A stretch of 64,000 nt of DNA from a bacterium (GTDB lineage: Bacteria > Patescibacteriota > Minisyncoccia > Phycocordibacterales > Phycocordibacteraceae). The stretch is taken from contig JAJYCP010000001.1 in NCBI GenBank assembly GCA_021778295.1, positions 66,513 to 130,512 on the forward strand. The letters run 5' to 3'. Below the pieces are notes generated by a model that was not told where the DNA came from, made no database searches, and saw only the letters and a program-made list of their open reading frames with translations. The position numbers and the translations under genes are program-made. This document shows, piece after piece, positions 9,113-26,572 of the stretch (positions are counted from its first letter, which is position 1; each line of letters opens with the position of its first letter).

Positions 9113-9200
9113 GGCTCTACCATAGCACGTGCACCAAGAGCAGGAATGATCCGTGATACACTTCACAGCTATAGCAGCTACCTAAAACGATTAGTCACCC

Positions 9201-9926
9201 ATGGTTCACTCGCATATCTACATCAAAAAACTGGATGAGCAGGACGGGTATACCGTCTGGCTCGTAAATGGCGCACTGGTTCGCAAAGAACTCGATGAGA
9301 ACTTCGTCGAATATGACTACCACGGTCACTTTCGTTTTATTCCGGAAAAAGAATTTTGGATCGATGATGAAATGTCCGGAAAAGAATACCACCTGTACAT
9401 CAAACGCCTCCTCAAGGAAGTCTCTTTTCTAAAAGAGGGAATTACTGTCGCGGAAGCCGCTCATAAGGCCGACGCTTTTGAGGAAACGCTCCGACAGAAC
9501 GGGAAACGCATGCAAAAGATTCTCACTTCTCAAAACCAAGAGATGCTCCGCCGCTCTCTCAAGAAAGAGAAGCTTAAGGAATACAGCAGCGCGGTAAGCG
9601 TGTGGCTCGTCGACGGGCCTCTCGTCAGGAGCGTATACATGCTCGGGTACGCCGAAGGGGGACACGACGTAGTGTATGCATGGATTCCAAAAAATGAGAT
9701 TTGGCTCGAAGAATCTCTCAAGACGGAGGAGCGTGCCTTTATCGTGCTGCATGAATTGCATGAGCGGTACCTCATGCTCTCGCAAAAAATGTCCTATGCG
9801 AACGCGCACCACGGAGCGACTATCATCGAAGATCATTACCGGGAGAACAGGAAAGGGCTCGAGGAACGCATCCGTGAAGAAATAAAAAAGAACGATTCGG
9901 TCTCGGGTGATGCGTTGGACAAGTAA
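9201..9926 (+). CDS. Hypothetical protein with an internal domain duplication.
   Basis: Two repeats of about 80 aa share VWLV(N/D)G(A/P)LVR...GH...IP..E.W. No assignable family. Confidence 0.5.
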   Translation: MVHSHIYIKKLDEQDGYTVWLVNGALVRKELDENFVEYDYHGHFRFIPEKEFWIDDEMSGKEYHLYIKRLLKEVSFLKEGITVAEAAHKADAFEETLRQNGKRMQKILTSQNQEMLRRSLKKEKLKEYSSAVSVWLVDGPLVRSVYMLGYAEGGHDVVYAWIPKNEIWLEESLKTEERAFIVLHELHERYLMLSQKMSYANAHHGATIIEDHYRENRKGLEERIREEIKKNDSVSGDALDK

Positions 9927-9983
9927 CACGATATAAAACAATAACGGGAGCATAAAGCTCCCGTTAGAAATGTACTCTCTTTG

Positions 9984-10205
9984 TTATTTGAACTTGAAAC
10001 TTAACTGCCGCTGCAGGTGTCGCGTTCCGCGGGATTTCCTGCCGCTCCGGAGCCCGCATTCTCGCAGCACGCTTGCGCGATGCGCGAGATACTCGCTCGT
10101 CCCAAGACTGTATTGCTTTAATACGTCATCAACGGCTTTCTGCATCGTCCCGCCGTTCTTACGGCGTCGCCTCGCAGCTTCTGTCGCAAGTGCTTTGATG
10201 TCCAT
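9984..10205 (-). CDS. Small hypothetical protein (73 aa).
   Basis: Strong SD GAGGAGG sits 5 nt upstream of ATG 10205. Co-oriented downstream of the membrane protein gene. Confidence 0.4.
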   Translation of the reverse strand: MDIKALATEAARRRRKNGGTMQKAVDDVLKQYSLGTSEYLAHRASVLRECGLRSGRKSRGTRHLQRQLSFKFK

Positions 10206-10280
10206 ACGAACCTCCTCACCAGTGGGTGCGTCGGATTATACCGCAGTAACCTGCGTTTGCCACGCGTCCTACACGAGCGT

Positions 10281-10805
10281 TTAGCAGGTGACGCAGAGTC
10301 CGGCAGCGCGGCGCGCTGAAAAGTACAAGCCGATCGCCACGATAACGAGCATGACGGCGATAATTCCGGACTGATTCGCGGCGACAAAAAGCGCGCCCCC
10401 GCCAAGGCCGAGTACGCCGAGCAGGATGCCGATACCGCATCCGCAGGAAGCGGCTGCGAGCACACCGCCGGTGAGCGAGGCGATGAGGCCGATGCCGCTT
10501 TCTCCGGCGGCACGGAGGCCTTGCGTCCGGGAGCGTCGAAATGCAAAAAGCTCAAATGACAGCAGCACGCCGGTCATAAGCGCAAGAGTGACAAGCAAAG
10601 CGTAGTTGAGCACAGTCATTCGGGAAAGTTCGAATGCGAGCGTGTTGCCGGGGACAAGCCACACAGGCACGAGAAGATACACGCCGAAAAACACGAGTGC
10701 GCCGCCCGCTGAGATAATCCCGTATGACGGGTTCCGAAACACGCTCACACTGGTGCGGAGCACCGTACGCATTTCAAGTCCGTATCTTTTGCATTTTTCT
10801 AACAT
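10281..10805 (-). CDS. Polytopic membrane protein with conserved Cys pairs (SCGCG...C-terminal CVTC).
   Basis: 4-5 TM helices. TATATAAT -10 element and GAAGGG RBS upstream. Family not assignable. Confidence 0.5.
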   Translation of the reverse strand: MLEKCKRYGLEMRTVLRTSVSVFRNPSYGIISAGGALVFFGVYLLVPVWLVPGNTLAFELSRMTVLNYALLVTLALMTGVLLSFELFAFRRSRTQGLRAAGESGIGLIASLTGGVLAAASCGCGIGILLGVLGLGGGALFVAANQSGIIAVMLVIVAIGLYFSARRAAGLCVTC

Positions 10806-10833
10806 GAAACTACGTGCCCTTCATTATATATGC

Positions 10834-11442
10834 TCACCATATAAACAAGATAAGATTCCAAGTTTTTTTAGTATATTCCGTATACGCGCTTCCAAAGCGC
10901 TTTTTCAAAGCGATTTCCTCGACGTGTATACGCCAACGATACCCGATACATACGGTCGAGAGTATGAAAAGCAGACCCATCCAATTTCCGAGCGCGAGGC
11001 CCACGCCGAGAACGGAGATCATCGATCCGGTGTAGGACGGGTGGCGAAGATACCGGTACGGTCCGGACGTGATGAGTTTGTGGTCGTCTTGGATGAGGAC
11101 AACGGTTCGAAAGTATTTCCCCAGCGTTTGAATCGACCAGAGGCGGAACAGAATACCCACCCAGATTAAGATGATTCCGGAAGTGAAAAGTAAAGAATTC
11201 AAACCACCATTATCGATACGGAATGCCGGTACCAAGAAGGCAAAAGCAAAAGCGAGGAAAATTCCTGTATACAGCATGGCCCAAAAAAATAATGCGCTAT
11301 AACCGTCCGTATTGTCGGTGGTCGTTTTTGCGCGCACGTCGCGCATGCTTACCCAGGTTTCAAAGACAAAGAACCATGAATAAAAACTAACCCAAAAAAG
11401 AATTGCCCAAATGGGATTATTCGTAATTGAGACTGCATTCAT
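10834..11442 (-). CDS. Isoprenylcysteine carboxyl methyltransferase (ICMT)/phospholipid methyltransferase-family membrane protein.
   Basis: Conserved motif YRYLRHPSYTGSMI and C-terminal EE..L...FG..Y..Y. Confidence 0.75.
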   Translation of the reverse strand: MNAVSITNNPIWAILFWVSFYSWFFVFETWVSMRDVRAKTTTDNTDGYSALFFWAMLYTGIFLAFAFAFLVPAFRIDNGGLNSLLFTSGIILIWVGILFRLWSIQTLGKYFRTVVLIQDDHKLITSGPYRYLRHPSYTGSMISVLGVGLALGNWMGLLFILSTVCIGYRWRIHVEEIALKKRFGSAYTEYTKKTWNLILFIW

Positions 11443-11458
11443 GGTGTGTCAACGGACG

Positions 11459-12130
11459 TCAGGAAAGGATCGGGACGACATACATCTTCCTGAAAAGGAT
11501 GGAATAGATACTGATGTCCGTGACCACGATACACCAGATGATGAGGGTAAGCTGAGCATATCCGAAAAATACTCCGAGAAAGGCGAATAAAGCGAGCAAT
11601 GCTTCCACAGTATTTATTTTTATCTTTCGGAAGACGGTCGCCGGGTTTTGCATGGACGGGAGCTTCAGCGTATAGGTAAGCATCTCAAACAGAAGGAATG
11701 CCAGTATAAGGATGCTGAAATACTCGGGATGGGAAAAAGAGAACACAAGAGAGAGGTGAAGGAAAAGTAAAAGCCCATGGAGCATTCTTTGGATAATGGT
11801 ATGAGCAGGTATGACTTTTGAAACGAAAGAATGAGAAGCGTACTCTTTCCACGTCAGTGTTCCATAGATGATGACCAAGGGCCATACGAGCATCAAGTGC
11901 TGTACAGCAATAACCACGCCGATAACACCGAATACAACGAACAACGCGATTTTTGCCGCCGCCCTTTTTTGGAAACTCATAAAAACGTATTTCGCCAGTG
12001 TATCATAGAGTTTGATTATGCTCGCATACCCAAGATGAAATCGAGATGAAGCAGGCGTGAAGTAAAAATGGTGGTTGTCCCCATTACGGTCACGTATAGA
12101 AAAAGCCGCCTCCCGAGGGAGGACGGCCAA
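11459..12130 (-). CDS. Hypothetical membrane protein.
   Basis: Multiple TM helices. Track ORF starts at TTG 12130; an ATG at 11980 is an alternative start. Confidence 0.45.
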   Translation of the reverse strand: MAVLPREAAFSIRDRNGDNHHFYFTPASSRFHLGYASIIKLYDTLAKYVFMSFQKRAAAKIALFVVFGVIGVVIAVQHLMLVWPLVIIYGTLTWKEYASHSFVSKVIPAHTIIQRMLHGLLLFLHLSLVFSFSHPEYFSILILAFLLFEMLTYTLKLPSMQNPATVFRKIKINTVEALLALFAFLGVFFGYAQLTLIIWCIVVTDISIYSILFRKMYVVPILS

Positions 12131-12133
12131 AGA

Positions 12134-12787
12134 TCATGATTCGCTCGTCTCTTTCCGTAGCACCGTGCGCTGCTCCTCGGTGAGTCGTGGCGGGCTTCCC
12201 GTTTCCTGGTAGGTATGCCAGGTCTGCTCCCACGCGTCGCGAAAGATCTCGAACAGGACACTGTCGACGAACGTACCATTGTAGAAATGGTGAGCCGCCC
12301 GACGACCGACTTGCCGGTAGCCGCAGGCAAGCAAGTGGCCCCAACTATTGTCGTTGAAGACCTTGACCTCCGAACAGACTTTCCGGAGGCCCCGGTTGCG
12401 AAACGCTTCATAGAGGAGTAGCAGTTTCGCTTCGGTCCCGTAGCCTTTTCCGAAACACGACTTGTCGGCGATGATGGTACCGCTCGTCGCGTGGCCGTCG
12501 GGATAGGTGATGCTGTGCAGACCAGTGTGCCCGATGTAGCGGTAGCCGGTCATCGTACCCATCTCGTCGCGCTCGTGAAGCAGAATAGCGAAGGTGACGT
12601 TGCCAGTCCTGCTCGCCATACCGTCGTACCACGCGAACTCCGCTTCGAGCGTAACGGGCGGGCGCAAGGTGACGCCGCGCATCACGTCTGGGTCGTTGGC
12701 CCCCTGCATGAAGAGGGGGATGTAATCACGGCGCATCGCGCCGAGTGAGACGTTATAGCCTTGATGAATGGGCGAATGGTCGCTCAT
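12134..12787 (-). CDS. GNAT-family N-acetyltransferase (RimJ/RimL-like).
   Basis: 217 aa. Acetyl-CoA-binding region ...DKSCFGKGYGTEAKLLLLYEAF.... Confidence 0.75.
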   Translation of the reverse strand: MSDHSPIHQGYNVSLGAMRRDYIPLFMQGANDPDVMRGVTLRPPVTLEAEFAWYDGMASRTGNVTFAILLHERDEMGTMTGYRYIGHTGLHSITYPDGHATSGTIIADKSCFGKGYGTEAKLLLLYEAFRNRGLRKVCSEVKVFNDNSWGHLLACGYRQVGRRAAHHFYNGTFVDSVLFEIFRDAWEQTWHTYQETGSPPRLTEEQRTVLRKETSES

Positions 12788-13030
12788 GATAATTTCCTTT
12801 CAATGAACATGCTCTGCTCCAGAAAACGAGAAACCTCGGCTTCCGCAGAGCCGAGGTCTTTCTTGAGGGTTTGGGAGGGGAAGAAAAATCGCGGCTATGC
12901 GCAAGCGGTAACGTCGAGATCGAAGATCTCATTCGTCATCGGTGCGACATAACCACAATTTCGATTCATACCGCTATAGTAGCGCGTTAGCGCTGTTTGT
13001 CAAGTTCATGTACTGGACTCGTACAGAACC

Positions 13031-13125
13031 TTGACAACACAATATTTTTTATTAAACTAATTACAGACTGTTCTTTGCTGCGGATTAACTGCACGCAGAG
13101 GTAACGGTTATTTTGTGATAAGGAG
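13031..13125 (+). promoter_or_regulatory. Promoter plus conserved 5' leader, module copy A.
   Basis: TTGACA(13031)-N16-TAAACT-N6-AGACTGTTCTTTG...GGTAACGGTT...AAGGAGATG. Near-identical in architecture to 19781..19876. Confidence 0.5.
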
Positions 13126-13518
13126 ATGAGACAAATGAACGACATCATGTCCTCATGTATGCAACCCGATATCATCCAATCGGATCCACTCCCTGATTTG
13201 AAGAACGTTCCTCTGTTTGGGGCAGAAGACCAGACGTGCTTAGAGGAGATTGCAACGGTGCTGAAAAAGCACGGACGGCTAGACCGATTTGGCGTCACGT
13301 TGCTGCATCAGCACTTTCCAGTCGGCGACAACGAAATACTGCTGGAAAAGAACGATCCAGCCTCGCGTACCCTCGAAATGCGTCCATGTAATCGGGCAGA
13401 GCTCGAAGGTATGGACGCCAGGATCACCAGCTGGCGGTTGGATTCGGGGAAACCGCAGATGGCCTGCGTCTGCATCAATTTCGGTGGAGGCGAGCATCAA
13501 CATCTTTCTCGTGGATAA
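13126..13518 (+). CDS. Hypothetical protein (130 aa).
   Basis: Good SD AAGGAG. Lies in a low-GC island. No recognisable domain. Confidence 0.5.
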   Translation: MRQMNDIMSSCMQPDIIQSDPLPDLKNVPLFGAEDQTCLEEIATVLKKHGRLDRFGVTLLHQHFPVGDNEILLEKNDPASRTLEMRPCNRAELEGMDARITSWRLDSGKPQMACVCINFGGGEHQHLSRG

Positions 13519-13562
13519 CTCTCCAGCTATACCTACGACCGGAGCCTTGCTCCGGTCGTTTT

Positions 13563-14051
13563 CTATAATTTAATAGTGTAGAGGTACGTAGGTGTTGGTG
13601 AATCAGGTACGGATACTTTTTTTTCAAAAACACCTCGGTTATGCTCGATGATTTTCCGCGAAGCAACATTCGTTTCATCGGAGGCAATGATAAGTTTGTC
13701 CATACCGAGATCTCGAGCCTTCTCAATGCCCAGTGCAAGTATTTTGGTCCCGTATCCTTTGCTTTGTTCAGAGGGGCGTATTTCGTAATACACATGACTT
13801 GCAATATCGGAAAACCTCCCGCTCGGGTTTTTTCTGATTTGAATTCGACCAAGATACTTTTCATTTTCTTGAAGCCAATATTCCGTGCGAGCAACTTCGC
13901 CAAGGCGTAGGTTTATTCCAAACGATGCATCTTTACTGTGTGTTATGTATTCTGAAATCTCATCATTACCTAAATAGATAGCTTGCTCTTCGAGAGCTTT
14001 TTGAAACGAAGCTGCCAACGTTTGAGAGGGTTCCACGAGGAATGCGGCCAT
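13563..14051 (-). CDS. GNAT-family acetyltransferase.
   Basis: Q/R-x-x-G-x-G/A-like motif SKGYGTKILALGIEKARDLG. ATG at 14051. Low-GC island. Confidence 0.7.
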   Translation of the reverse strand: MAAFLVEPSQTLAASFQKALEEQAIYLGNDEISEYITHSKDASFGINLRLGEVARTEYWLQENEKYLGRIQIRKNPSGRFSDIASHVYYEIRPSEQSKGYGTKILALGIEKARDLGMDKLIIASDETNVASRKIIEHNRGVFEKKVSVPDSPTPTYLYTIKL

Positions 14052-14279
14052 CAATACATATCATACTTGAGATCTCAATTACGTGGAACTGGGAGGGGAT
14101 TTCTCCAAATCAACAACCTTGTTCTGACACAAAAGAAATCCAATCTTCAGATGTATTATATTATCAACAGTAAATTCTCAATAATGTAATGCCATACTCT
14201 ATGCATGCCATGAGTCGTTCGAGAAAAATGGCGGCTGACCCCATTTCTCCCGCTAGGTTTTGCGTGCTATAGTCTTTGC

Positions 14280-15365
14280 ATGACGGCGGAAACTCGCCCG
14301 GTCATCCTCACAGGCGACAGCGAAGTCGCCAAGCTTCGGGCGTCGCATTCGGAACTCACTGAAGTCGACGCATTCTCCCGCCAGATCAAAGAGCTTTTCT
14401 TTATCGATAATCATGCGTTCATTGGTACGCCGAAAGAAGAGGCCTATGCGACCGAGGATTTCAAGAAGTATGCGTCTTCGAAAGAGGGCGCATTTGTCTA
14501 TGTATATTTCCCCTGGAACAATACGCTCGTAAAGACTGTAGATGCCGGGGATTACTACCAGCTCAAGACGAACCGCAATCAGGACCTTATCACTGCCGAA
14601 GAACAGAAGAAACTGCGCGACTACAAAGTGGCCGTGCTTGGCATGAGCGTCGGGTCAAACGTGGCCTTTGTATTGACGCAGGCGGGTATCAGCAACGACA
14701 TCATTCTCGCCGACTTCGACGAGCTCGATACCACAAATCTTAATCGCATCCTTGCGGGCGTTCATGAAGTTGGCTTGAACAAGACCGTCATTGCGGCGCA
14801 CCGCATTTATGAAGATAATCCGTTTGCGAACGTTACCTTGCTCCAGGGAGGCGTGAATGAAACCAATCTCGAAGAGCTCATCAAAGCCGGCAAGATAGAC
14901 TGTATTCTCGAAGAGATCGACGACATGCCGTTCAAGATTCACGCGCGCCTGCTCGCGATGAAATACAAGATTCCTGTTGTGATGGTGACCGACAATGGCG
15001 ACGGCGTCGTACTCCACGTCGAGCGGTATGATCTCGGCCATGACAAAATCTGGGGCAAGCCGCACGAATACTACGAGGAAAAGCTCGCCGACGGCCCAAT
15101 GACGAAAGAGAAGGCGGGCGACGTCATCATCCACGACATCGTCGGCGGCGTGCATCGGGTCGATCCGAAAATGATTGCAAGCGTGAAGCGCGTGCTTGCT
15201 AAAGAACTGGTGTCGTGGAGCCAGCTCGGTTCGGCAGCCATTCTTGGCGCAGTCGTCGCGACCTACGCGATTAAAGAAATCGCGCTCGGGAAGGGTACCG
15301 AGAAAGACATTCGCGCCTGGATCTCTCCGGAAAGCGTCGAAAAAGGTACGCATTCCCACTCATAA
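14280..15365 (+). CDS. E1-like ThiF/MoeB-family adenylyltransferase with a ~115-aa N-terminal extension.
   Basis: Rossmann motif KVAVLGMSVGSNVAFVLTQAGI...ILADFDELDTTNLNRIL has the ThiF/TcdA-like architecture. No CxxC zinc motif. TATAGT sits 6 nt before ATG. Confidence 0.7.
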   Translation: MTAETRPVILTGDSEVAKLRASHSELTEVDAFSRQIKELFFIDNHAFIGTPKEEAYATEDFKKYASSKEGAFVYVYFPWNNTLVKTVDAGDYYQLKTNRNQDLITAEEQKKLRDYKVAVLGMSVGSNVAFVLTQAGISNDIILADFDELDTTNLNRILAGVHEVGLNKTVIAAHRIYEDNPFANVTLLQGGVNETNLEELIKAGKIDCILEEIDDMPFKIHARLLAMKYKIPVVMVTDNGDGVVLHVERYDLGHDKIWGKPHEYYEEKLADGPMTKEKAGDVIIHDIVGGVHRVDPKMIASVKRVLAKELVSWSQLGSAAILGAVVATYAIKEIALGKGTEKDIRAWISPESVEKGTHSHS

Positions 15366-15371
15366 AAATCT

Positions 15372-16478
15372 ATGCTTGGCTTTTCAGATACCGGAGACAT
15401 CACAAGCATCGAAGCTTTGAAAGAGTTCGATAACCACCCGCTCGTCTCCTTTGCACACGACAAAGAATCCGGCTTGTCTGCAGTCATCGCTATCCATCGT
15501 GCCAACCCGGACGTCCCGTCTTTCGGCGCGACGCGTTTTTGGCACTACGCTTCCTCGCTTGAGGGCGTCAAAGATGCGCTTCGCCTCTCCCGACTCATGT
15601 CCTACAAAGCGGCGCTCGCAGGTCTTAATTGCGGTGGCGCAAAGGGCGTGATCATTGCGCAGAGCGATCCTCAAAAAATGGAGAACACCGTCCGTGACTC
15701 CATTTTGGGGGCGTATACAGCGCGTGTGAATCTCCTTGGCGGCCGTTTCGTGACAGGCAGCGATGTGGGCATCCGGCAGGTAGATCTTGATGCCATGCGT
15801 AAAGTTTCGCGGCATGTCATCGGCTTTAATGACAACTCAACGGAGTTTACGGCACTTGGCGTTTTCGAAGCGCTCAAAGCGGCCCTTATGGAAGTGTTTG
15901 GCTCAAGTGAACTCAAAGGCCGCGCCTTTGCGATTCAGGGCCTTGGAAAGATCGGTGAAGGGTTCCTCTCGTATATTTATGAGCCGGTTGGAACGGCGGG
16001 AAAGATTTTTGTATCAGACATTGACGCAAATCGCGTGGAAGAGATCAAACGCAAATATCCGCGTGTCATGGCGGTTGCGCCATCAGAAATTGATCGCCAG
16101 GAAGTAGACGTGTTTGCCCCCTGCGCGCTTTCAGGCGCTGTGAATAAACGCAACGCATCCCGCCTTGCGTGCAAAATTGTTGTGGGGGGCGCAAACAACC
16201 AGCTTGAAACAGAATCGGCAGGCGATGCATTGTTTGAGCGCGGCATTCTCTATGCGCCAGACTACGTGGTAAACGCAGGGGGGCTCATTGCGGTATTCGA
16301 TGAATACAAAAATCCGGCGTATGACCGTACTCGCGTCGAGCGTGCGGTACTTCACATTCCCGAGACTTTGCGAAAGATTTTTGCTGAAAGCCGCGCGGAG
16401 AAAATAGCGCCGAGCCGCATCGCAAACCGCATGGCAGAAAAGATTTTCAATGGATATGGAAATATCACATCGCGCTAA
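15372..16478 (+). CDS. Glu/Leu/Phe/Val-family amino-acid dehydrogenase (Leu/Phe/Val dehydrogenase-like).
   Basis: Catalytic Lys in GGAKGVI. NAD Rossmann motif GLGKIG. C-terminal VVNAGGLI. 368 aa. Confidence 0.8.
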   Translation: MLGFSDTGDITSIEALKEFDNHPLVSFAHDKESGLSAVIAIHRANPDVPSFGATRFWHYASSLEGVKDALRLSRLMSYKAALAGLNCGGAKGVIIAQSDPQKMENTVRDSILGAYTARVNLLGGRFVTGSDVGIRQVDLDAMRKVSRHVIGFNDNSTEFTALGVFEALKAALMEVFGSSELKGRAFAIQGLGKIGEGFLSYIYEPVGTAGKIFVSDIDANRVEEIKRKYPRVMAVAPSEIDRQEVDVFAPCALSGAVNKRNASRLACKIVVGGANNQLETESAGDALFERGILYAPDYVVNAGGLIAVFDEYKNPAYDRTRVERAVLHIPETLRKIFAESRAEKIAPSRIANRMAEKIFNGYGNITSR

Positions 16479-16502
16479 ATATTCTTTTACCCCTCCTAAA
16501 AC

Positions 16503-18044
16503 ATGAAATACCCTCTGCAAGAGATACGCACGCTCGAACTCCCGACCGCCTTGCGCAATATAGAGCACCTCGAAAAACGGCTGCGCGAGGACGCTCCGCG
16601 CCTCTGGGAACGTCGCGGCGAAATACAAGCGCTCAAACTCTTCCACGCCATGGCCGAACGAGTTCCCGCGTACAAGGATGTGCTGAAGAAAAACCGCATC
16701 CGCCCCGATTCCGTCCGCTCAATGCAAGATTTCAAACAGCTCCCACTTTTGGATAAGACCAGCTACCTGCGCGCCTATCCTCTGAAGGAGTTGTGCTGGG
16801 ACGGTGAGTTCTCCGAACGCGCATGGACCGTTTGCACGACTTCCGGCTCGACCGGCGAGCCGTTCTATTTTCCACACGGAGCGATGCAAGATGCGCAGTA
16901 TGCGCTCTTCGCCGAACTCTATCTGCGCACCAACTTTCAAATTCATAAGAAGCGCACGCTCTACGTCAACGGATTCCCAATGGGTGCGTGGATAGGCGGT
17001 GTCTTTACCTATAAAGCGATAACCATGCTCGCCGAGCGCGGCGATTATCCGCTCAGCATCATCAATCCGGGCATCAATAAAATCGAGATTATCAAAGCGA
17101 TTCGCAAGCTTGGCGACGACTTCGATCAGGTCATCATCGGCGGTTACGGTCCGTTCGTCAAAGATACGCTCGACGACGGCATTCGGGAGGGGATGGATTG
17201 GAAGAAATACAATCTCGGCTTCATCTTCTCGGCCGAAGGATTTTCCGAAGGTTTCAGGGATTACGTACTTGAGATGGCGGGGAAGAAAGACGATATCACC
17301 GCGACCCTCAATCACTACGGCACAGTTGACCTCGGGACGATGTCGTACGAAACGCCGCTTGCGGTGCTCGCGCGCCGCCGCGCGGTGGAGCATCCGGAAC
17401 TGTACCGGAAGCTGTTTGACAATTCCATCCGGCTGCCGACGCTGACGCAATTCCTCCCGAGCCTCTTTTTCTTTGAGGAAGTGGACCGGACGCTCGTGTG
17501 CTCCGCGGCGGCCGGCCTTCCGCTTGTACGATACGATTTAAAAGATGTCGGCGGCGTGTACCGGTACGACGAACTAACCGACGCGTTCCATGCGGCCGGC
17601 GTCGACCTCGAGAAGGAGCTCTCCGGCCGGGGTCTTGCGCAAACACGATGGAGCCTGCCGTTCGTATACGTCTACGAGCGGAACGATTTCTCGGTCAGTT
17701 TCTATGCATTCCAGATTTATCCGGCGACTATCCGGCGCGCGCTCGAGCAGACGTCGCTTCGCTCGAAGCTGACGGGGAAGTTCGCAATGCGCGTGGAGTA
17801 TGACCGCAACCAGAACCAGCGGTTTGAAGTCAATGTCGAACTCAAGAGCGGTGTGGTGCGTACCGATGCGCTGAAAGAGAAGGTGACGAAACTGGTGACT
17901 GAACAGTTGCTCAAAGAAAGTTCCGAGTACCGCGAGACACATCGCATGAAAGGACGTCGCGTCTTCCCACATGTAGTGTTCTGGCCATACGAGCACGAGC
18001 GCTTTTTCCGTTCGGGCATCAAGCAGAAGTGGGTAGTACGTTAG
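16503..18044 (+). CDS. PaaK/coenzyme F390 synthetase-family adenylate-forming enzyme (phenylacetate-CoA ligase-like).
   Basis: AMP-binding P-loop TSGSTGEP near residue 110. Has the size (513 aa) and layout of the PaaK/CapK family. Confidence 0.7.
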   Translation: MKYPLQEIRTLELPTALRNIEHLEKRLREDAPRLWERRGEIQALKLFHAMAERVPAYKDVLKKNRIRPDSVRSMQDFKQLPLLDKTSYLRAYPLKELCWDGEFSERAWTVCTTSGSTGEPFYFPHGAMQDAQYALFAELYLRTNFQIHKKRTLYVNGFPMGAWIGGVFTYKAITMLAERGDYPLSIINPGINKIEIIKAIRKLGDDFDQVIIGGYGPFVKDTLDDGIREGMDWKKYNLGFIFSAEGFSEGFRDYVLEMAGKKDDITATLNHYGTVDLGTMSYETPLAVLARRRAVEHPELYRKLFDNSIRLPTLTQFLPSLFFFEEVDRTLVCSAAAGLPLVRYDLKDVGGVYRYDELTDAFHAAGVDLEKELSGRGLAQTRWSLPFVYVYERNDFSVSFYAFQIYPATIRRALEQTSLRSKLTGKFAMRVEYDRNQNQRFEVNVELKSGVVRTDALKEKVTKLVTEQLLKESSEYRETHRMKGRRVFPHVVFWPYEHERFFRSGIKQKWVVR

Positions 18045-18061
18045 CCATAAGCTTAATTATC

Positions 18062-18847
18062 TTATTCTCCCTCTACTTTTTTTGTTTCGTTAGCATCGAG
18101 TCGTCCAGCTTCTTCCCATGCAAGATTGAAGAGACTCTCTATAACATCTGCAATATCCTGACTCTGAATAATCACACCGAATTCCTCGCTTGTTGAAATG
18201 AATACGATTTTGTCCGCATATATACGCAGTTCAGAAGAAAATGGGTATATATCGGCTGGTACACTTCGTACTCTTGAGGCGTCATTCGCATTTAACAGCG
18301 CGCGCTCGACAGTTTTTTCGTAAGGGAAAATAATCTTCGTTTTATACTTGCGTTGCAAATTTTGATTATCCCAAAAGGAAAATGATGATCCGAATGTAGT
18401 TTTTGATATAGGTAAAAATGTATACACTTGCGTCCCAGGCGGGTAGGCTAGTAGGTCATTACTAACAGTTTGTATTCCGCCAACTCCTTCGTAAAACAAC
18501 ACGTGTGGTTGGCTCTTTAATTTCTTCGATACTGAAAGAAGTTCGGAAAGTAATAAACTCATTTCATTTTCCTGTCGAGCCGAGTCCTGAGCCAACTTAT
18601 CAGCTCGTTCCACAAGTTTTTCTGGAGAGACAGCATGATATTTAAGAATCCCATTCTGTTGTGTTTTCTCGACAAATCCCTGTTCCACAAGCGTAGCAAG
18701 TAACATATAGGCCGACGATCGATTGAGTTTTGCTTCTCTTGCGGCCTCGTGCGCGCTTGCCGGACCCATAGTAAGTAATTCCTGATAAAGAACCGCCGCT
18801 TTTTGTGAAAGCCCAAATTCTTGGAGGTGTGACAGTAAAGTATTCAT
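18062..18847 (-). CDS. TrmB-family transcriptional regulator (paralog 1).
   Basis: N-terminal TrmB winged HTH: LQEFGLSQKAAVLYQELLTMGPASAHEAAREAKLNRSSAYMLLATLVEQGFV. Low-GC island. Confidence 0.65.
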   Translation of the reverse strand: MNTLLSHLQEFGLSQKAAVLYQELLTMGPASAHEAAREAKLNRSSAYMLLATLVEQGFVEKTQQNGILKYHAVSPEKLVERADKLAQDSARQENEMSLLLSELLSVSKKLKSQPHVLFYEGVGGIQTVSNDLLAYPPGTQVYTFLPISKTTFGSSFSFWDNQNLQRKYKTKIIFPYEKTVERALLNANDASRVRSVPADIYPFSSELRIYADKIVFISTSEEFGVIIQSQDIADVIESLFNLAWEEAGRLDANETKKVEGE

Positions 18848-19623
18848 GGAAATTCATCACCTATCCTCCGCGCTTCTCCGATCGCAAGGTCAAAAATTGT
18901 CTTCATTAATTCCGCAATTTTCTTACTTCTAATGAACGCTGTAAAAAGGAATGTGTGCGACATAAAAATCGTCTTATCATCGTAGACAGCAAAATCAGCA
19001 GGGAATCGATACCTGTCTTCTGAGATAAAAAAATGTGTATCCAAATCCTTAGACACAGGCATATTCTTAAATGCATTCATACTGTGAGGCTCTGCCGGAT
19101 GAATCCCAACCATACCGATGTTTCTTTCCATCCGTTTCTGGACATAGGGAGGTAGATAATCGGGTAAGGTTCTAAAAATTTCAGGACCGGAGGAAATAAC
19201 CCGCATATATCCCTCTTTTAGAGAAAGACTATCATCAAATCCGTCTATTAACCCCTGCCGTCCTTCAAGTATAGTAACTTTGGGCCTGTAACGTGCCCCC
19301 CGATGTTTCGAGGAAAGTGTCGGAAGCATGGTCCGCAGGTTTTTACTAAGCAGCTCATGCTTTTCAGTCTTTTCCTTTGCTAGTTGCAGAAGATGTTCGG
19401 GTGGGGCAGCCACATATTTTCTGACCCCATGAGTAGTTCCGATGCTTATGAGCCCTTGTTTAATAAGCCGTTCAATGACTACGTACATTGAGCTACGGTT
19501 GATACCTGTCTCCTTACTAGCCAACTGAGCTGTAGCTCCATCGAGGGACAAAAGTGCAAGGTAGACCTGAGCATCCTTTTCGGGAAGCCCTAGTGCAGAG
19601 AGTCGTTTTGCGAGGGGTGTCAT
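18844..19623 (-). CDS. TrmB-family transcriptional regulator (paralog 2).
   Basis: LSALGLPEKDAQVYLALLSLDGATAQLASKETGINRSSMYVVIERLIKQGLI. Overlaps paralog 1 by 4 nt. Confidence 0.65.
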   Translation of the reverse strand: MTPLAKRLSALGLPEKDAQVYLALLSLDGATAQLASKETGINRSSMYVVIERLIKQGLISIGTTHGVRKYVAAPPEHLLQLAKEKTEKHELLSKNLRTMLPTLSSKHRGARYRPKVTILEGRQGLIDGFDDSLSLKEGYMRVISSGPEIFRTLPDYLPPYVQKRMERNIGMVGIHPAEPHSMNAFKNMPVSKDLDTHFFISEDRYRFPADFAVYDDKTIFMSHTFLFTAFIRSKKIAELMKTIFDLAIGEARRIGDEFP

Positions 19624-19780
19624 ATTGGCACAACAGGCGGAAACTCACTTCGCCCATTTGTTGTCACATACTAGCAACAGTATTCAATATAAGCAAGCAA
19701 CTACGGGCTTAGAGGTGAGGCAGTCCATTCTGACATTTTTACCCTCATTTCGATCTTCTTTCGAAAATAGTTGTTAATTG

Positions 19781-19876
19781 TTGACAACATTCTCCTCTTG
19801 GACAAACTACCCATAGACTGTTCTTTGTCATGGATTGTCCGTGACCAGGGTAACAGTTGCTTTGTGGAGATGTGTG
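19781..19876 (+). promoter_or_regulatory. Promoter plus conserved 5' leader, module copy B.
   Basis: TTGACA(19781)-N16-CAAACT-N6-AGACTGTTCTTTG...GGTAACAGTT...GGAGATG. Same spacing to the ATG as copy A. Confidence 0.5.
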
Positions 19877-20461
19877 ATGAAACACATTCATCATGAATTA
19901 CCGTGGGGTAGCAATTCTTCTCCAGTCCTTGCAATCGGCGGCGGTGATGGCGGTTGTTATCAGAAAATCCAGGCGCTCGATTTGGAACCCATCATGGTCA
20001 AACTCATGGATCCGGTCGAGGGTGAAGGATGGACCCTTGAGCAGGTGCGCGAGACGGAGGTCTGGTACAAGCGGTTTCTGTACCTCAACGCCGTCTATCC
20101 AGATCGCTCAATCGTGCCGACTCATGCTATTGACTCGTTCTGGCACTACCACATCCTCGACACGCTGAAGTATGCTGAGGACTGCCAGATCGCGTTCGGC
20201 TACTTCCTGCACCATTTCCCGTACTTCGGTATGCGCGGTGACGAAGACCAACAGAACCTCCTGGATGCGAGCGAGCAGACTTGGGATCTGTTTCGCGAAC
20301 ACTTCAACGAAGAACCGGTAATCCTGCACGGAGATGTGAGCAAATGCGTTAAATCGTGCACTGGCAAAACATGTTCTCATTGCAAGGCTCCAACCTGTTC
20401 CAGTGGTCCGAAGGTGCGGAGCAACGAACGTCCGCGACTGGCTGTTGCGGTGGCCGTGTAG
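19877..20461 (+). CDS. Glycine-rich-domain-protein-like (DUF1399-like) protein with a Cys-rich C-terminal tail.
   Basis: Motif AIDSFWHYHILDTLKYAEDCQIAFGYFLHHFP. Tail CVKSCTGKTCSHCKAPTCSS. SD GGAG lies before ATG 19877. Confidence 0.45.
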   Translation: MKHIHHELPWGSNSSPVLAIGGGDGGCYQKIQALDLEPIMVKLMDPVEGEGWTLEQVRETEVWYKRFLYLNAVYPDRSIVPTHAIDSFWHYHILDTLKYAEDCQIAFGYFLHHFPYFGMRGDEDQQNLLDASEQTWDLFREHFNEEPVILHGDVSKCVKSCTGKTCSHCKAPTCSSGPKVRSNERPRLAVAVAV

Positions 20462-20522
20462 CTATACCGCTAAGTGGCGCGGCAAGACTCAATGAGAGGC
20501 CGGAGATTTTTCCGGCCTCTTT

Positions 20523-21404
20523 TTATTTTAGAAAAGCATCGAACCAGTTAACAATTTCTTGATCCACTTGTGTCTCGTATTCTTCTAATGCATGTGTACC
20601 CCGTGGATATGCTATGAGCTTGAAATCACGGAAATGTCCAGCTGCTTTTTCTGCAAACCGAAATGCTTCGCGTGAGTCAACGCGCCAATCTGCCATTCCA
20701 CACAACACTAAAAGTGGCACAGCACGCGGAATCTCTTTATACCAATAGATGACTGAACGTTTTTTCTTTTCTTCACGTGAACCACCAAACATTTTCTGAA
20801 AATGTTTTCTCATTTCTGGACGGTATGTCTCCTGGAAAAACAAATCGGTAGGGCCAGATACAACAACCGCAGCGCGTACCCATCTTGTTTTCTGAAGCGT
20901 GCGATACGTCATAATACCTCCGCGGCTAAAGCCATACATGCCGATTTTCTTTGTATCGCAAAAAGATAGTCCTGCGATAATTTTTTTTAGATTTATCACA
21001 TCATGAAGATCCAAACCACCCATCTCATCAACGCCTTCACCTCCAGCAACACCAGAATATTGAGATGCGATAACGACATAGCCAGCGCGCGCGAGCGCGG
21101 CAATAGTGCCAGTAAATAACCATCCGATTCGAATTGCGCCAAATTCACCACTACCGCCACGGTTGTACACTACAGTCGGTGCGCGAGCAGTATGTTTCTT
21201 TGGTACAACTATATAGCCCACAACCGCATGGCCTTGAGAAGTGTAAGTGAATCGGTAAGCGGTCATATACTTCTGGTTCTTTTTCACTTCAACGGAAAAG
21301 TCTTGACCGAATCGAGCCCGGAGTTCTCTGGTTATAACGATTTTTCTTACCTCGCGCACGATTGGGACTTTCATAAGATCGCGCAACACAAGATCATCTT
21401 TCAT
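20523..21404 (-). CDS. Alpha/beta-hydrolase of the S9 peptidase/dienelactone-hydrolase type.
   Basis: Nucleophile elbow GFSRGG with downstream Asp and His. 293 aa. TATAGT sits 6 nt before ATG. Low GC. Confidence 0.65.
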   Translation of the reverse strand: MKDDLVLRDLMKVPIVREVRKIVITRELRARFGQDFSVEVKKNQKYMTAYRFTYTSQGHAVVGYIVVPKKHTARAPTVVYNRGGSGEFGAIRIGWLFTGTIAALARAGYVVIASQYSGVAGGEGVDEMGGLDLHDVINLKKIIAGLSFCDTKKIGMYGFSRGGIMTYRTLQKTRWVRAAVVVSGPTDLFFQETYRPEMRKHFQKMFGGSREEKKKRSVIYWYKEIPRAVPLLVLCGMADWRVDSREAFRFAEKAAGHFRDFKLIAYPRGTHALEEYETQVDQEIVNWFDAFLK

Positions 21405-21449
21405 AATAACTATATGCTAGCAGGGTATAAAATCAGTGTCTATCTCCGG

Positions 21450-21480
21450 TAATTACTACTACTAATAGTAGTAGTAATTA
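21450..21480. promoter_or_regulatory. Perfect 31-bp palindrome TAATTACTACTACTA-A-TAGTAGTAGTAATTA (candidate operator).
   Basis: Read directly from the sequence. Lies about 45 bp upstream of the hydrolase start, in a 400-bp AT-rich intergenic region. Confidence 0.35.
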
Positions 21481-21803
21481 ATAGGAACAGGAGTCCAAAA
21501 ATGGATCCGCCAAGCTGTATTCTCCAAGGACTAGGGAGTTTGAGAATCATTGAGAAAAGTTTTAACCGTATACTACACAGGTAGCAGTATCCGACGATCA
21601 GTGTAGTGGTCACGAAGGTTCAACAGGCGGCGGTAACGGAACAAGGGGCAAATAATCTGATGTTCCCATTAGGCTGGTAGTTGAAAAATCAACTACTCAT
21701 ACCCCGAGTGTTTCCGAATAATGAAACACCTGAGGATTAACGAGGTTAGCATTTCTTAAATCAGTTATAATGGAACTATGGGGGTTTTCTTAACCCAACG
21801 AAT

Positions 21804-22865
21804 ATGGTTCCCGATAACACAATTCTTCTTGAAATTCTGCGAGATGCTTGTCGAGCTCCCTCTGGTGATAATGTTCAGCCGTGGCGTTTCCGGTGGGACG
21901 GCTTGACACTATCCCTCTACAACATCCCTGGCATCCATAACTCATACCTTGATTTTGAAGAACGTGGCGCATATATCGCACATGGTGCGCTCCTCGAGAA
22001 CCTCGCGATTGCCGCCCCACATTACGGCTACAACGTCTCGATAATGCTCTTCCCGGATCAGGGGATGCCCGACCTTGTCGCACGCGTCGCCTTTGCGCCT
22101 AGCGCTACATATGACGACCCGCTGTATGCGAGCATTCAGAGACGCGCAACAAACCGTCGACCGTATGCATCACGCGCACTTGCGTCCGATGCACGTGCCG
22201 CGCTCAAGGACGTTGCGATGCCTGAGGGTATGACGCTCGTTCTCATTGAAGATGCTGCAAAAAGAGAGACGCTCGCGCCGCATATAAGCGCAATCGAGCA
22301 GCTCTTGCTCGGCCATGCGGCTCTGTCGAGCGCATTTTTCGCTCATATCGTGTGGACGAAGCGTGAAGAACGTGCGAGACGTAGCGGATTCTACGTAAAA
22401 ACCATGGAGTTCAATCCAGTGCAGGCATTCGTATTCAAGCTCGCGAGTAAGCCCTGGCTTATGCGCGCGTTCCGCAAACTTGGGCTCCCCGCACTCATTG
22501 CGAGTGAAGATGCTAAGATATATGGGGGAGGCTCGGCACTCGGGGGACTGTATGCGCCAGACTTTTCCAAAACCAGCGCACTTGCGCTCGGACGTGCACT
22601 TGAGCGCGTATGGCTTACTGCGACGACGCACGGACTCGCGTTCCAACCACTCTTCGGTACCACCATGATGGGGTACAAGTCGCGCCGCGGCGAAGCGATG
22701 TTCCTCTCGGATGCGGAACGTGCCGCCATTGAAGTAAGCGCGCTCTCTCTTGAGACGGCATTCAGAAATACGCGCGATACACCGACGCTCATCTTCCGTG
22801 TCGGCTATGCCCAGGAACCGAGTGCGTATACGTCTCGGAAGGAACCGAACATAGTTTATAATTAG
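21804..22865 (+). CDS. Nitroreductase-family protein (tandem/large form).
   Basis: N-terminal SGDNVQPWRF nitroreductase motif. A second nitroreductase-like half gives 353 aa in total. Confidence 0.65.
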   Translation: MVPDNTILLEILRDACRAPSGDNVQPWRFRWDGLTLSLYNIPGIHNSYLDFEERGAYIAHGALLENLAIAAPHYGYNVSIMLFPDQGMPDLVARVAFAPSATYDDPLYASIQRRATNRRPYASRALASDARAALKDVAMPEGMTLVLIEDAAKRETLAPHISAIEQLLLGHAALSSAFFAHIVWTKREERARRSGFYVKTMEFNPVQAFVFKLASKPWLMRAFRKLGLPALIASEDAKIYGGGSALGGLYAPDFSKTSALALGRALERVWLTATTHGLAFQPLFGTTMMGYKSRRGEAMFLSDAERAAIEVSALSLETAFRNTRDTPTLIFRVGYAQEPSAYTSRKEPNIVYN

Positions 22866-22872
22866 GGCACCC

Positions 22873-24471
22873 ATGGGTGCCCTTGCGAATTTTGATCTCT
22901 TGTCGGTGGGCGTTGCCATCGCGGGCACGCTTGTGCTCGGGTTCGTCATTTATTTCACAGACCAGAAGAGCAGTACGAACCGCATTTTCTTCGCGTTCGC
23001 ATTCGTCACCGCAATATGGGGCTTGCTCAACTATCTCAGTTATCGCGTCGAAGATCTATCCATCGCGTTCGCACTCCTACGCTTCGAACTCGCGCTCGCC
23101 GTGTGGCAAACGTTCATAATTTTTCGACTCCTGCTCATCTTTCCGGATCACAACGACACGCTTCCACGGCGCTATCTGCTCGCGCTTGTCGTGTACACGG
23201 GCGTCATATCCGTGCTGTGCCTTACGCCGTTCGTCTTCGAGCGTATCACTGCAGTTACCGCCACTGGGTATATCAAAGACATAGCCGTCGGGCCGGCAAT
23301 CGCGCTCTTCGGCGTCACAAGTATAGGGTTCGTCCTTGCAGGATGGGTAGTGTGCGCCCGAAAGACGTTCCGCCTCATGGGCACACAGCGTGCGCAAACG
23401 GGATTCTTCCTGCTCGGAGCGATTACGATGTTCTTGCCAATCATCATCCTGAACTTCATCTTCCCAGCATTCTTGCGGGATTCGAGGTTCGTTCCGTACG
23501 GTGCGGTCTCGATATTCCCGTTCGTACTGTTCACGTCCTACGCAATCCTGCGTTTCCATTTGTTCAACATCAAGGTCATCACGACTTCCATACTCGTATT
23601 CGTGCTTTCCGTCGTTTCATTTGGCCAGGTCCTTTTCTCGGATACGTTGCCTACGATGCTGTTCCAGACAAGCGTTTTCGTCCTCGTCCTCGTCTTCGGC
23701 ATCAATCTGATACGGAGCGTCATACGCGAAGTAGAGCAACGAGAGAAAATACAGAAGCTCGCCGAGGAGCTCGCGGCGACCAACGAGCGACAGGAGACGC
23801 TGATTCACTTCATCGGGCACGAAGTCAAAGGGTTCCTGGCCAAGGACGCAGGCGCGTTCACTTCGCTTGTTGACGGCGATTTTGGCGTATTGCCCGGGGA
23901 ATTGAAACCGCTTGTGGAACGCGCGCTCGTTGAGACGCGGCAGGGCGTTGCGTCGGTGGAGGCTCTCCTAAAGGCGGCAAACTTGAAGAAAGGGACCGTA
24001 ACGTATACAAAAGCGCCGTTTGACCTCAAAGAGCTCGTTGCGGGGGCCGTAGAGAAAGAGAGGCCTGCGGCTGAGAACAAAGGGCTCGCGCTCTCGTTTA
24101 CAGCCGACGACGCGTCGTACCAAATGACGGGGGATAAGGGGCAAATCAACGACCACGTCCTGCGCAACCTCATAGATAACGCTGTCAATTACACGCCATC
24201 GGGCTCGATTGCAGTATCGCTCAGGCGCGAGGGCGACAAGCTCGTGTTCGCAGTGAAAGACAGTGGCGTCGGCATCACCGACGAAGACAAGCAGCGTCTT
24301 TTCACCGAGGGCGGCCACGGCAAGGATTCGCAGAAGGTGAATGTCCATTCCACCGGCTATGGTCTTTACATCGCAAAGCAGATAGTCGAGGCGCACGGCG
24401 GCACCATCCGCGCCGAGTCTGAAGGGCAGGGCAAGGGCTCGACGTTTATCGCAGAATTTCCGGCCCAGTAA
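22873..24471 (+). CDS. Sensor histidine kinase with a multi-TM N-terminal sensor.
   Basis: About 7 TM helices. H-box HFIGHEVKG. N box NLIDNAVNYT. G1 DSGVGI. G2 GYGLYIAKQIVEAHGG. No response regulator adjacent. Confidence 0.8.
   Translation: MGALANFDLLSVGVAIAGTLVLGFVIYFTDQKSSTNRIFFAFAFVTAIWGLLNYLSYRVEDLSIAFALLRFELALAVWQTFIIFRLLLIFPDHNDTLPRRYLLALVVYTGVISVLCLTPFVFERITAVTATGYIKDIAVGPAIALFGVTSIGFVLAGWVVCARKTFRLMGTQRAQTGFFLLGAITMFLPIIILNFIFPAFLRDSRFVPYGAVSIFPFVLFTSYAILRFHLFNIKVITTSILVFVLSVVSFGQVLFSDTLPTMLFQTSVFVLVLVFGINLIRSVIREVEQREKIQKLAEELAATNERQETLIHFIGHEVKGFLAKDAGAFTSLVDGDFGVLPGELKPLVERALVETRQGVASVEALLKAANLKKGTVTYTKAPFDLKELVAGAVEKERPAAENKGLALSFTADDASYQMTGDKGQINDHVLRNLIDNAVNYTPSGSIAVSLRREGDKLVFAVKDSGVGITDEDKQRLFTEGGHGKDSQKVNVHSTGYGLYIAKQIVEAHGGTIRAESEGQGKGSTFIAEFPAQ
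24398..24461. repeat. 64-bp direct repeat, copy 1 (last 21 codons of the HK gene).
   Basis: Identical to 26573..26636 (gcggcaccatccgcgccgagtctgaagggcagggcaagggctcgacgtttatcgcagaatttcc). Confidence 0.85.
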
Positions 24472-24568
24472 ACGACCCATCTTGATATTTTTTAATTTTG
24501 TGATATACAAAGGTCAGAAATGACTTTCGAAAGTAGTTCTTTTCCACCCAGCCTGTGGGAGTCAAGTC

Positions 24569-25495: not shown

Positions 25496-25559
25496 CGTGT
25501 TGCTTCCGAGCCCATTACCCCAGCGGGTAGTGGGCTCCTCTGTTAGTATAATCAGACGC

Positions 25560-26532: not shown

Positions 26533-26572
26533 GCGTAACCGAGGAAGTGTCGGTCCTGATGTGGAACACACA

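Follow-up and report, generated by a model that had tools for sequence, protein, structure and literature searches.

Patescibacteria have tiny genomes and are thought to be nearly without biosynthetic or signaling chemistry of their own. Here, we report a conserved gene module in a 64,000-nucleotide stretch of DNA (the window; contig JAJYCP010000001.1, positions 66,513 to 130,512) from a patescibacterium of the Phycocordibacteraceae. The module encodes a ThiF-like E1 enzyme (E1), an amino-acid dehydrogenase (DH), a PaaK-like enzyme (PaaKL), a flavin-dependent oxidase (FDO), and a seven-transmembrane (7TM) sensor histidine kinase (HK). The only oxazolone synthetases known are homologues of its core, and that relationship gives a conserved "hypothetical" operon a concrete chemical hypothesis. 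We propose, giving the idea an even chance, that the module (DH or aminotransferase, PaaKL ligase, ThiF-like cyclase, FDO, and 7TM kinase) makes an oxazolone-like small molecule without an acyl-coenzyme A (acyl-CoA) acyltransferase. The genes and features of the locus were as follows.

14280-15365, + strand: ThiF-like E1 (361 amino acids [aa]), ATP-dependent adenylating enzyme, predicted cyclase
15372-16478, + strand: DH (368 aa), NAD(P)-dependent, Leu/Phe/Trp type, predicted aromatic-type pocket
16503-18044, + strand: PaaKL (513 aa), modeled PaaK fold, ANL superfamily, predicted N-acylating ligase
18045-21803, no strand: insertion of low guanine-plus-cytosine (GC) content (3.76 kb), splitting the ancestral operon
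18062-18847 and 18844-19623, - strand: TrmB-family regulators inside the insertion (Pfam)
19835-20461, + strand: GRDP-like protein inside the insertion (Pfam)
20523-21404, - strand: S9-family peptidase inside the insertion (Pfam)
21804-22865, + strand: FDO, nitroreductase superfamily, predicted desaturase (NCBIfam)
22873-24471, + strand: HisKA_7TM membrane sensor histidine kinase, HK (Pfam HisKA_7TM and HATPase_c)

A preliminary description of the window, made from the sequence alone, had reported the first three genes as a tightly coupled operon flanked by low-GC islands and two TrmB regulators. Calling of open reading frames (ORFs) recovered all three intact on the + strand at the coordinates above, with gaps of 6 and 24 bp, and they proved to be a real functional unit, syntenic in dozens of relatives and sometimes fused. 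The operon was incomplete as described, since the FDO and kinase genes lie further 3′; HK starts 7 bp past FDO on the same strand, and the pair stands 3.76 kb 3′ of the PaaKL gene. The low GC of the flanks was seen again (0.39 to 0.42 at 13600-14200 and 0.40 to 0.44 at 18000-19400, against 0.50 to 0.60 in the three genes), as were both TrmB genes (each - strand ORF matched Pfam TrmB, E ~1e-13), but the TrmB pair and the 3′ island do not flank the operon. They belong to an insertion (GC content, 0.40 to 0.47 across most of the block) inside an ancestral five-gene operon, because in relatives the PaaKL gene abuts the FDO gene; in five of them (L001, L005, L006, L007, and L008; loci carry L numbers), FDO directly follows PaaKL and the 3.76-kb block is absent. 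A consensus promoter scan found no + strand promoter-like site in 14280-18044, its site counts being the same as in shuffled sequence, and a promoter/terminator scan of 13900-24700 also gave counts equal to those of shuffled sequence. No tRNA or Rfam features were found in or near the operon.

Homologues were sought across Patescibacteria (the candidate phyla radiation [CPR]). At least 120 cluster-level ThiF homologues (60 to 96% identity) were found, all in Parcubacteria/Paceibacterota-type metagenome-assembled genomes. PaaKL gave more than 1,000 matches, the top 120 all at least 54% identical, from Paceibacterota, Saccharimonadia, Microgenomates-type bacteria, Magasanikbacteria, and other lineages; an exhaustive search returned 535 representatives (50% identity) at E ≤ 1e-30. 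PaaKL is a Patescibacteria-specific family without a Pfam model. The module itself was present in Paceibacteria-type bacteria, Saccharimonadia, Microgenomates-type bacteria, Magasanikbacteria, and Doudnabacteria. Two relatives on long contigs carried the genes in the order ThiF, DH, a 510-aa protein, a nitroreductase-like protein (342 to 353 aa), and a HisKA_7TM kinase (532 aa).

Eighty fetched loci, the earlier relatives, and the window made up a set of 83 loci whose ORFs were clustered by all-against-all BLASTP. Linkage was counted in the 61 loci with adequate flanks, using the PaaKL gene as the anchor. A ThiF gene or ThiF-FDO fusion stood near PaaKL in 60 of the 61, FDO or the fusion in 47, and a HisKA_7TM kinase in 57, the kinase being codirectional and at the 3′ end of the cluster. 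A receiver-only response regulator was found in 33 loci, often divergent and upstream of the cluster. An ELFV dehydrogenase occurred in 29 loci and a class I aminotransferase in 25; seven had neither, and no locus had both. There were two gene orders: ThiF-DH-PaaKL-FDO-HK (the window type) and DH-PaaKL-ThiF-FDO-HK, the latter also seen as a divergent aminotransferase gene followed by PaaKL-ThiF-FDO-HK. The core genes were separated by median gaps of at most 34 bp, in most cases of at most 6 bp; the median FDO-HK gap in relatives was 6 bp. ThiF-FDO fusions were continuous ORFs in independent assemblies at seven loci. The best of the CPR fusions (L048; 738 aa) matched the NCBIfam model NF005901, "Rv1355c family protein," end to end at 452 bits, under its cutoff of 476. 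Proteins predicted from metagenomes added further fusions, namely, PaaKL-ThiF (863 aa), ThiF-PaaKL (880 aa), DH-PaaKL (847 aa), and DH-PaaKL-ThiF (1,242 aa).

No acyltransferase family was found among the conserved neighbors in the 83 loci, and none was conserved within about 5 to 6.5 kb in the 61 loci. The conserved neighbors also included no 2-oxoacid:ferredoxin oxidoreductase, decarboxylase, or paa gene, and no small-ORF family of at least 70 aa was conserved near the cluster (the clustering covered ORFs from that length upward). Among neighbor families, the response regulator, aminotransferase, and alpha/beta-hydrolase were checked by profile, and others were read as housekeeping (MurD-like and tRNA-synthetase-like). 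No YcaO was seen among the conserved families, as judged partly by profile search and partly by reading representative sequences; with no precursor ORF either, a thiazole/oxazole-modified microcin (TOMM) azoline/azole synthetase was rejected.

An alpha/beta-hydrolase gene (~296 aa; Abhydrolase_1) separated ThiF/FDO from the kinase in 11 of the 83 loci (L011, L013, L017, L018, L021, L028, L036, L037, L042, L050, and L082; 7 of the 61 well-flanked loci), the window having no copy; it could hydrolyze or transfer a reactive oxazolone. CPR-type modules at 53 to 61% identity were also found in records titled "uncultured Gammaproteobacteria" (L009, L010, L013, L021, L024, L025, L028, L036, and L055), "Polyangiaceae" (L045), and "Jordarchaeaceae archaeon" (P0134). 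Some of these records are submegabase chromosomes (OZ246401.1, 938 kb), and, to judge from gene content and genome size, the labels are probably wrong, the genomes being mislabeled CPR genomes.

The E1 (Pfam ThiF at residues 100-235, E 4e-21) had been described as having an N-terminal extension of about 115 aa and lacking the CxxC zinc site. Pfam boundaries left a real extension of ~100 to 115 aa ahead of the ThiF domain; the window E1 has one Cys, and CxxC occurred in 0 of 73 family members. The best NCBIfam match was NF005901 (211 bits; E 2e-62; query 15-340 on model 26-326 of 722), followed by ThiF at 65 bits. Rv1355c is TrzS, which carries out ATP-dependent cyclization and then O2-dependent desaturation of N-acyl-tryptophan to N-acyl tryptazolone (Kleetz et al. 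2025, PMC12856293). In BLASTP, E1 was 33% identical (E 7e-44) to residues 61-318 of an Rv1355c-family protein from a Mycobacterium dioxanotrophicus plasmid. The alignment to the TrzS model took in the extension, which was also partly aligned to the mycobacterial protein. These alignments make E1 a homologue of the Rv1355c/TrzS N-terminal half, extension included.

Across 81 ThiF sequences, drawn from CPR loci of either gene order, from the fusions, and from the mycobacterial homologue, the invariant residues were R99, G121/S123/G125 of the G-loop, D145/D147, N153/N155/R156, K168, and D214. D214 corresponds to D127 of Escherichia coli ThiF (ungapped offset of the PDB alignment), the position altered in the D217A mutant of TrzS; R540 and Q651 of TrzS were also mutated (PMC12856293). 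An AlphaFold2 (AF2) model of E1 had a predicted local distance difference test score (pLDDT) of 85 (~90 for the N-terminal domain) and matched the folds of AclA, MccB, ThiF, and MoeB in the PDB. AclA (9egb), crystallized "with substrate," was the closest solved structure; a literature search on AclA found nothing. Foldseek placed the N-terminal domain on MccB with a template modeling (TM) score of about 0.45 and a root mean square deviation of about 12 Å. A sulfur-carrier E1 of the ThiF/MoeB kind was rejected, as the ThiF and MoeB models scored E1 at only 36 to 65 bits against cutoffs of 152 to 449, CxxC was absent throughout the family, and, as the preliminary description had noted, there was no GG-ended partner (zero ORFs of 25 to 130 aa ending in GG within 9000-25000). 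Nor did E1 group with TcdA (NF011696, 47 bits against a cutoff of 304), an assignment that had been named as one that would undo the first account.

A stand-alone 390-aa ThiF on a plasmid of Streptomyces sp. NBC_01426 (NZ_CP109501.1; L087 5923-7697) aligned with window E1 residues 6-338, extension included. It is followed, with a 4-bp overlap, by a GNAT-family gene, and no FDO is annotated nearby; the pair may form an N-acyl amino acid pathway with a cyclase only.

The FDO matched the NCBIfam Acg family (flavin mononucleotide oxidoreductases) at 172 bits and NF005901 at 165 bits, the latter on model positions 374-715 of 722, and was 28% identical (BLASTP, E 2e-15) to residues 370-637 of the M. 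dioxanotrophicus protein. Its invariant residues were the motif APSxxNxQPW (18-27), R114, W184, R332, and R345. HK carried HisKA_7TM at residues 16-233 as well as HATPase_c (Pfam). An FDO-HK fusion hidden in the longer kinases (about 720 aa) was considered and rejected, those proteins having only HisKA_7TM, HisKA, and HATPase_c.

Directly after the kinase gene lies a 308-aa ATP-grasp protein (24569-25495, + strand) with weak, subthreshold matches to the MvdD pre-ATP-grasp domain (microviridin/graspetide ligases) and ATPgrasp_ST; it could be a graspetide-type maturase. It is followed by a ChaN/Tiki-like protein (25497-26303, + strand), and the pair is not kept beside the module in relatives. 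The last ~71 bp of the HK gene (24394-24464) recur at 97% identity 2.1 kb downstream (26569-26639), with more copies in the closest relative, L031 (17891-17970, 18476-18562, and 20714-20805); these repeats may have been left over from the ends of kinase genes, or they may mark a recombination hot spot.

The DH exceeded the cutoffs of both Pfam ELFV domains (PF02812, 53 bits; PF00208, 69 bits). Its best PDB matches were the leucine dehydrogenase (LeuDH) 6acf (1.5e-67) and the tryptophan dehydrogenase (TrpDH) 5b37 (2.9e-66), and its closest NCBIfam model was the TrpDH ScyB (275 bits against a cutoff of 600). Catalytic K91 and D131 and the motif G190xGxxG195 were invariant in 36 family members. 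Direct alignments gave the pocket as FGA/TG/GGL, compared with MGA/TG/GGL in Nostoc TrpDH (5b37) and LGG/TA/GGV in LeuDH (6acf). We take a Gly/Leu pair (G124/L307 of phenylalanine dehydrogenase [PheDH]) to be a PheDH signature, as against Ala/Val (A113/V291) in LeuDH, a point for which no literature support was found. The substrate is likely aromatic or bulky and hydrophobic, because the pocket resembles that of TrpDH and differs from that of LeuDH. An aromatic pocket would fit the Tyr, Phe, or Trp origin of all known oxazolones.

PaaKL had no match in Pfam, and its sequence matches were weak and N-terminal (PaaK, F390-synthetase, and FlxY models; TIGR02155, 30.6 bits against a cutoff of 646). 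The preliminary assignment to PaaK-type adenylating enzymes held at the level of fold: the AF2 model (pLDDT, 83) has the PaaK fold, and Foldseek matched it over its whole length to PaaK1/2, BT_0428, and 2-hydroxyisobutyryl-CoA ligase (HCL), with E from 1e-21 to 1e-15 (~1e-21 for PaaK1/2 and BT_0428, the latter with TM scores of 0.62/0.73). The amide ligase ClxA followed at 1e-12. ANL motifs were invariant in 15 homologues (TSGSTG at 113-118, YGTVD at 272-276, R343/D348, E392-R393-D395, and K507). By its TIGR02155 score, and with no paa genes among its conserved neighbors, PaaKL does not belong to a phenylacetate catabolon; membership of one would also have counted against the first account. 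ClxA, of closoxazole biosynthesis, is a PaaK-type, CoA-independent amide/ester ligase (PMC9400959, PMC12519233); its structure was deposited as a "phenylacetate-CoA ligase."

From these parts we propose the following route, which agrees with the general idea of the preliminary description, that an amino acid and its 2-oxo acid lead to an ATP-activated species. The DH, assigned by family and active site, would convert an L-amino acid with an aromatic or large hydrophobic side chain into its 2-oxo acid or the reverse, in a direction and on a substrate that we infer. PaaKL would adenylate a carboxylic acid and join it to the amino group of the amino acid, giving an N-acyl amino acid. Its fold, motifs, and linkage suit it to replace the acyl-CoA-dependent N-acyltransferase of known pathways (OxzA/TyzA/TrzA), and amide-ligase chemistry would have its precedent in ClxA. 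The DH or aminotransferase would supply one partner, either a 2-oxo acid that serves as acyl donor or an amino acid formed from such an acid; that the two enzymes exclude each other means only that the interconversion is required. By homology to TrzS and TyzB, the ThiF-like enzyme would adenylate the free carboxylate, on which the amide oxygen would close a 5(4H)-oxazolone ring. The FDO, again by homology, would desaturate the Cα-Cβ bond to an alkylidene- or arylidene-oxazolone. From linkage, the 7TM kinase, often with the receiver-only regulator, may couple the pathway to signaling. Because the kinase gene is codirectional and nearly abuts the last biosynthetic gene, with the regulator often divergent upstream, the arrangement suggests that the product or a precursor is sensed by the kinase or that a two-component system controls the pathway. 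A wider version, in which the module serves lineage-wide signaling through an oxazolone-like autoinducer or host-directed signal sensed by the adjoining kinase and receiver-only regulator, we consider rather doubtful.

Several observations weigh against an oxazolone product. The product and the activity of every module member are read from genes, and the known pathway leaves the role of the dehydrogenase or aminotransferase unexplained. E1 (211 bits) and FDO (165 bits) are each under the NF005901 equivalog cutoff of 476, as is their sum (376 bits); the Acg family model fits FDO no worse than the TrzS model does, and, when FDO is aligned to the M. dioxanotrophicus homologue, no conserved Arg lies at plausible positions of TrzS R540/Q651 (numbered as in Mycobacterium smegmatis TrzS). 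No FDO was found within 6.5 kb in 14 of the 61 loci. The features of PaaKL do not separate an amide ligase from a CoA ligase. Module proteins at least 50% identical across CPR classes are unusual for secondary metabolism and could mean housekeeping. Many Patescibacteria are anaerobes, which sits poorly with an O2-using FDO. The known FDOs of oxazolone pathways do use O2.

The end chemistry could be of the oxazolone type with PaaKL acting as an ordinary acyl- or aryl-CoA ligase that feeds an unlinked N-acyltransferase (for example, with arylacetyl- or 2-oxoacyl-CoA). Its nearest solved structures (PaaK1/2, BT_0428, and HCL) are CoA ligases, its weak sequence matches are all to CoA-ligase families, and every characterized oxazolone pathway uses an acyl-CoA-dependent acyltransferase. 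We nonetheless judge this unlikely; the well-flanked loci show no conserved acyltransferase at the distances searched, the DH-PaaKL-ThiF and PaaKL-ThiF fusions suggest that the ligase product is handed straight to ThiF, and many Patescibacteria are not known to have CoA and fatty-acid biosynthesis. Catabolism or salvage of aromatic amino acids would dispense with an oxazolone altogether, deamination giving an arylpyruvate and then an activated aryl acid, with ThiF and FDO in an unrelated role. The aromatic-type pocket of DH, the interchange of DH and aminotransferase, the BT_0428-type PaaK homologues among the structural neighbors, and a conservation across CPR high enough to suggest core metabolism all speak for such a route. 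It has no linked 2-oxoacid:ferredoxin oxidoreductase, decarboxylase, or paa gene, however, and AMP-forming ligases conserve no energy; ThiF is the tightest partner of the ligase and is fused to it, and the ThiF-FDO pair has a characterized biosynthetic homologue, so that we think catabolism improbable.

The preliminary description had also offered a C-terminal peptide or protein tailoring system, in which an MccB/PaaA-like E1 adenylates a ribosomal peptide or small protein held by its N-terminal clamp and the other enzymes tailor the product. MccB and PaaA are indeed among the PDB sequence and fold matches of E1, AclA was solved "with substrate," and the N-terminal domain is well folded in the model (pLDDT, about 90). 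The matches to MccB (E 1e-7) and PaaA (E 8e-3) are far weaker than that to the Rv1355c model (2e-62), which E1 matches from position 26. The extension itself is covered by the TrzS family model and, in part, by the mycobacterial homologue, enzymes of small-molecule substrates; TrzS takes small N-acyl amino acids (PMC12856293). The core genes abut or overlap, leaving no space for a precursor gene, and the searches for GG-ended ORFs in 9000-25000 and for conserved small-ORF families of at least 70 aa were both negative. This part of the earlier account is not supported, and we regard peptide tailoring as very improbable.

Whatever its product, the module is a tightly linked set of biosynthetic genes kept at 50% or higher protein identity across several classes of Patescibacteria. 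If the oxazolone proposal is true, oxazolone biosynthesis reaches well past Actinomycetota and Proteobacteria, making N-acyl amino acids with a ligase would be well matched to cells whose acyl-CoA metabolism is limited, and the linked 7TM kinase offers a way to study the physiological role of oxazolones. If the signaling version is true as well, this would be the first synthase/receptor pair for episymbiotic Patescibacteria, and N-acyl amino acids and oxazolones would gain a route that depends on a ligase. Hundreds of module genes are probably misnamed as "phenylacetate-CoA ligase" and "molybdopterin/thiamine biosynthesis adenylyltransferase."

The window also showed signs of rearrangement. 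L031 (JAKBHL010000006.1) has the TrmB pair of the insertion, with other cargo replacing 19789-21741. Identity to L031 was mosaic (window 14264-24464 against 7798-17957; ThiF 94%, TrmB2 96%, TrmB1 88%, FDO 86%, HK 87%, DH 72%, and PaaKL 76%), which suggests recombination within the operon. TrmB-like regulators recurred beside the module in L031, L042, and L080, and another Paceibacterota genome (L001 6778-7293; L002 113-628) encoded, two genes upstream of its ThiF, a 32%-identical homologue of the GRDP-like/UCP032817-like protein (19835-20461); both kinds of gene may be loosely associated accessories. A strong hairpin with a 12-bp stem and T tracts on both sides (20494-20521), between the convergent GRDP-like and S9-peptidase genes, is likely a bidirectional terminator inside the insertion. 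An upstream island with two GNAT genes (12054-14264) was missing from L031; these GNATs (12134-12787 and 13563-14054) were rejected as the missing acyltransferase, having no syntenic counterpart in any relative, L031 included. A dispersed repeat of ~60 to 140 bp, in both orientations and at 80 to 96% identity (31173-31315, 41523-41735, 53099-53162, and 62815-62941; also L031 1960-2107), matched neither a tRNA nor an Rfam family and looks like a miniature inverted-repeat transposable element or a repetitive extragenic palindrome.

A literature search gave no match that connects either oxazolones or the present set of genes to CPR ("oxazolone" with "Patescibacteria" returned only colitis-model papers). 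CPR, CoA ligases, aminotransferases, and kinases are unmentioned in the preprint of de Rond et al. (bioRxiv 10.1101/2020.06.11.147165) and in Grigg et al. 2023 (PMC10404671), and the same holds for the sections read of Kleetz et al. 2025 (PMC12856293). The authors of the latter suspect that the role of the oxazolone may be signaling.

Each enzyme can be set beside its known relatives. The DH shares with the Leu, Phe, and Trp dehydrogenases (6acf; NpTrpDH/ScyB, 5b37) full-length homology (E about 1e-66), the catalytic Lys and Asp, the Rossmann motif, and, by alignment, a TrpDH-like pocket. It differs in falling under the ScyB equivalog cutoff (275 against 600) and in sitting in a ThiF/ligase operon, not in a scytonemin or branched-chain catabolic context; a class I aminotransferase can stand in for it. 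PaaKL has the overall PaaK fold in its model, with the ANL P-loop, hinge, and C-terminal Lys motifs of PaaK and ClxA, but is only 15 to 18% identical to them and about 80 residues longer, and it never stood beside paa or benzoxazole genes and nearly always beside ThiF.

Among oxazolone pathways, the earlier one is OxzAB of Pseudoalteromonas rubra (de Rond et al., bioRxiv 10.1101/2020.06.11.147165). TyzACB (Rv2336-Rv2338c) and OxzAB make N-acyl tyrazolones and phenazolones, with TyzA and OxzA as acyl-homoserine lactone (AHL)-synthase/FeeM-like acyltransferases on acyl-CoA (PMC10404671; bioRxiv 10.1101/2020.06.11.147165), and TyzB (ThiF) and TyzC (FDO) are separate enzymes with the same chemistry as TrzS (Grigg et al. 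2023, PMC10404671). In the ancestral order of the module, ThiF and FDO stand side by side as two genes, like TyzB and TyzC, and ATP-dependent cyclization followed by flavin-dependent desaturation is predicted for both, a likeness of arrangement and logic; the AHL-synthase/FeeM-like acyltransferase is not linked in the module. TrzAS (Rv1356c/Rv1355c) is known from mycobacteria and Rhodococcus (PMC12856293). The module ThiF and FDO are full-length homologues of the respective TrzS domains, extension and adenylation Asp included; some CPR members have a TrzS-like ThiF-FDO fusion (452 bits), and the DH pocket is of the aromatic type where the known pathway uses Trp. In contrast to TrzS, the window ThiF and FDO are separate genes 6.4 kb apart, and the module has a PaaK-fold ligase and a dehydrogenase or aminotransferase in place of a linked TrzA-type N-acyltransferase, an adjoining 7TM histidine kinase gene, scores under the NCBIfam equivalog cutoff, and a host among Patescibacteria instead of the mycolic-acid Actinomycetota. 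Because it has neither the acyltransferase nor a score above the cutoff, the module is outside the OxzAB/TyzACB/TrzAS family in the strict sense. What is new against the known systems is an oxazolone-synthetase-like core, conserved superphylum-wide, to which a sensor kinase is attached and whose front end differs and probably needs no CoA.

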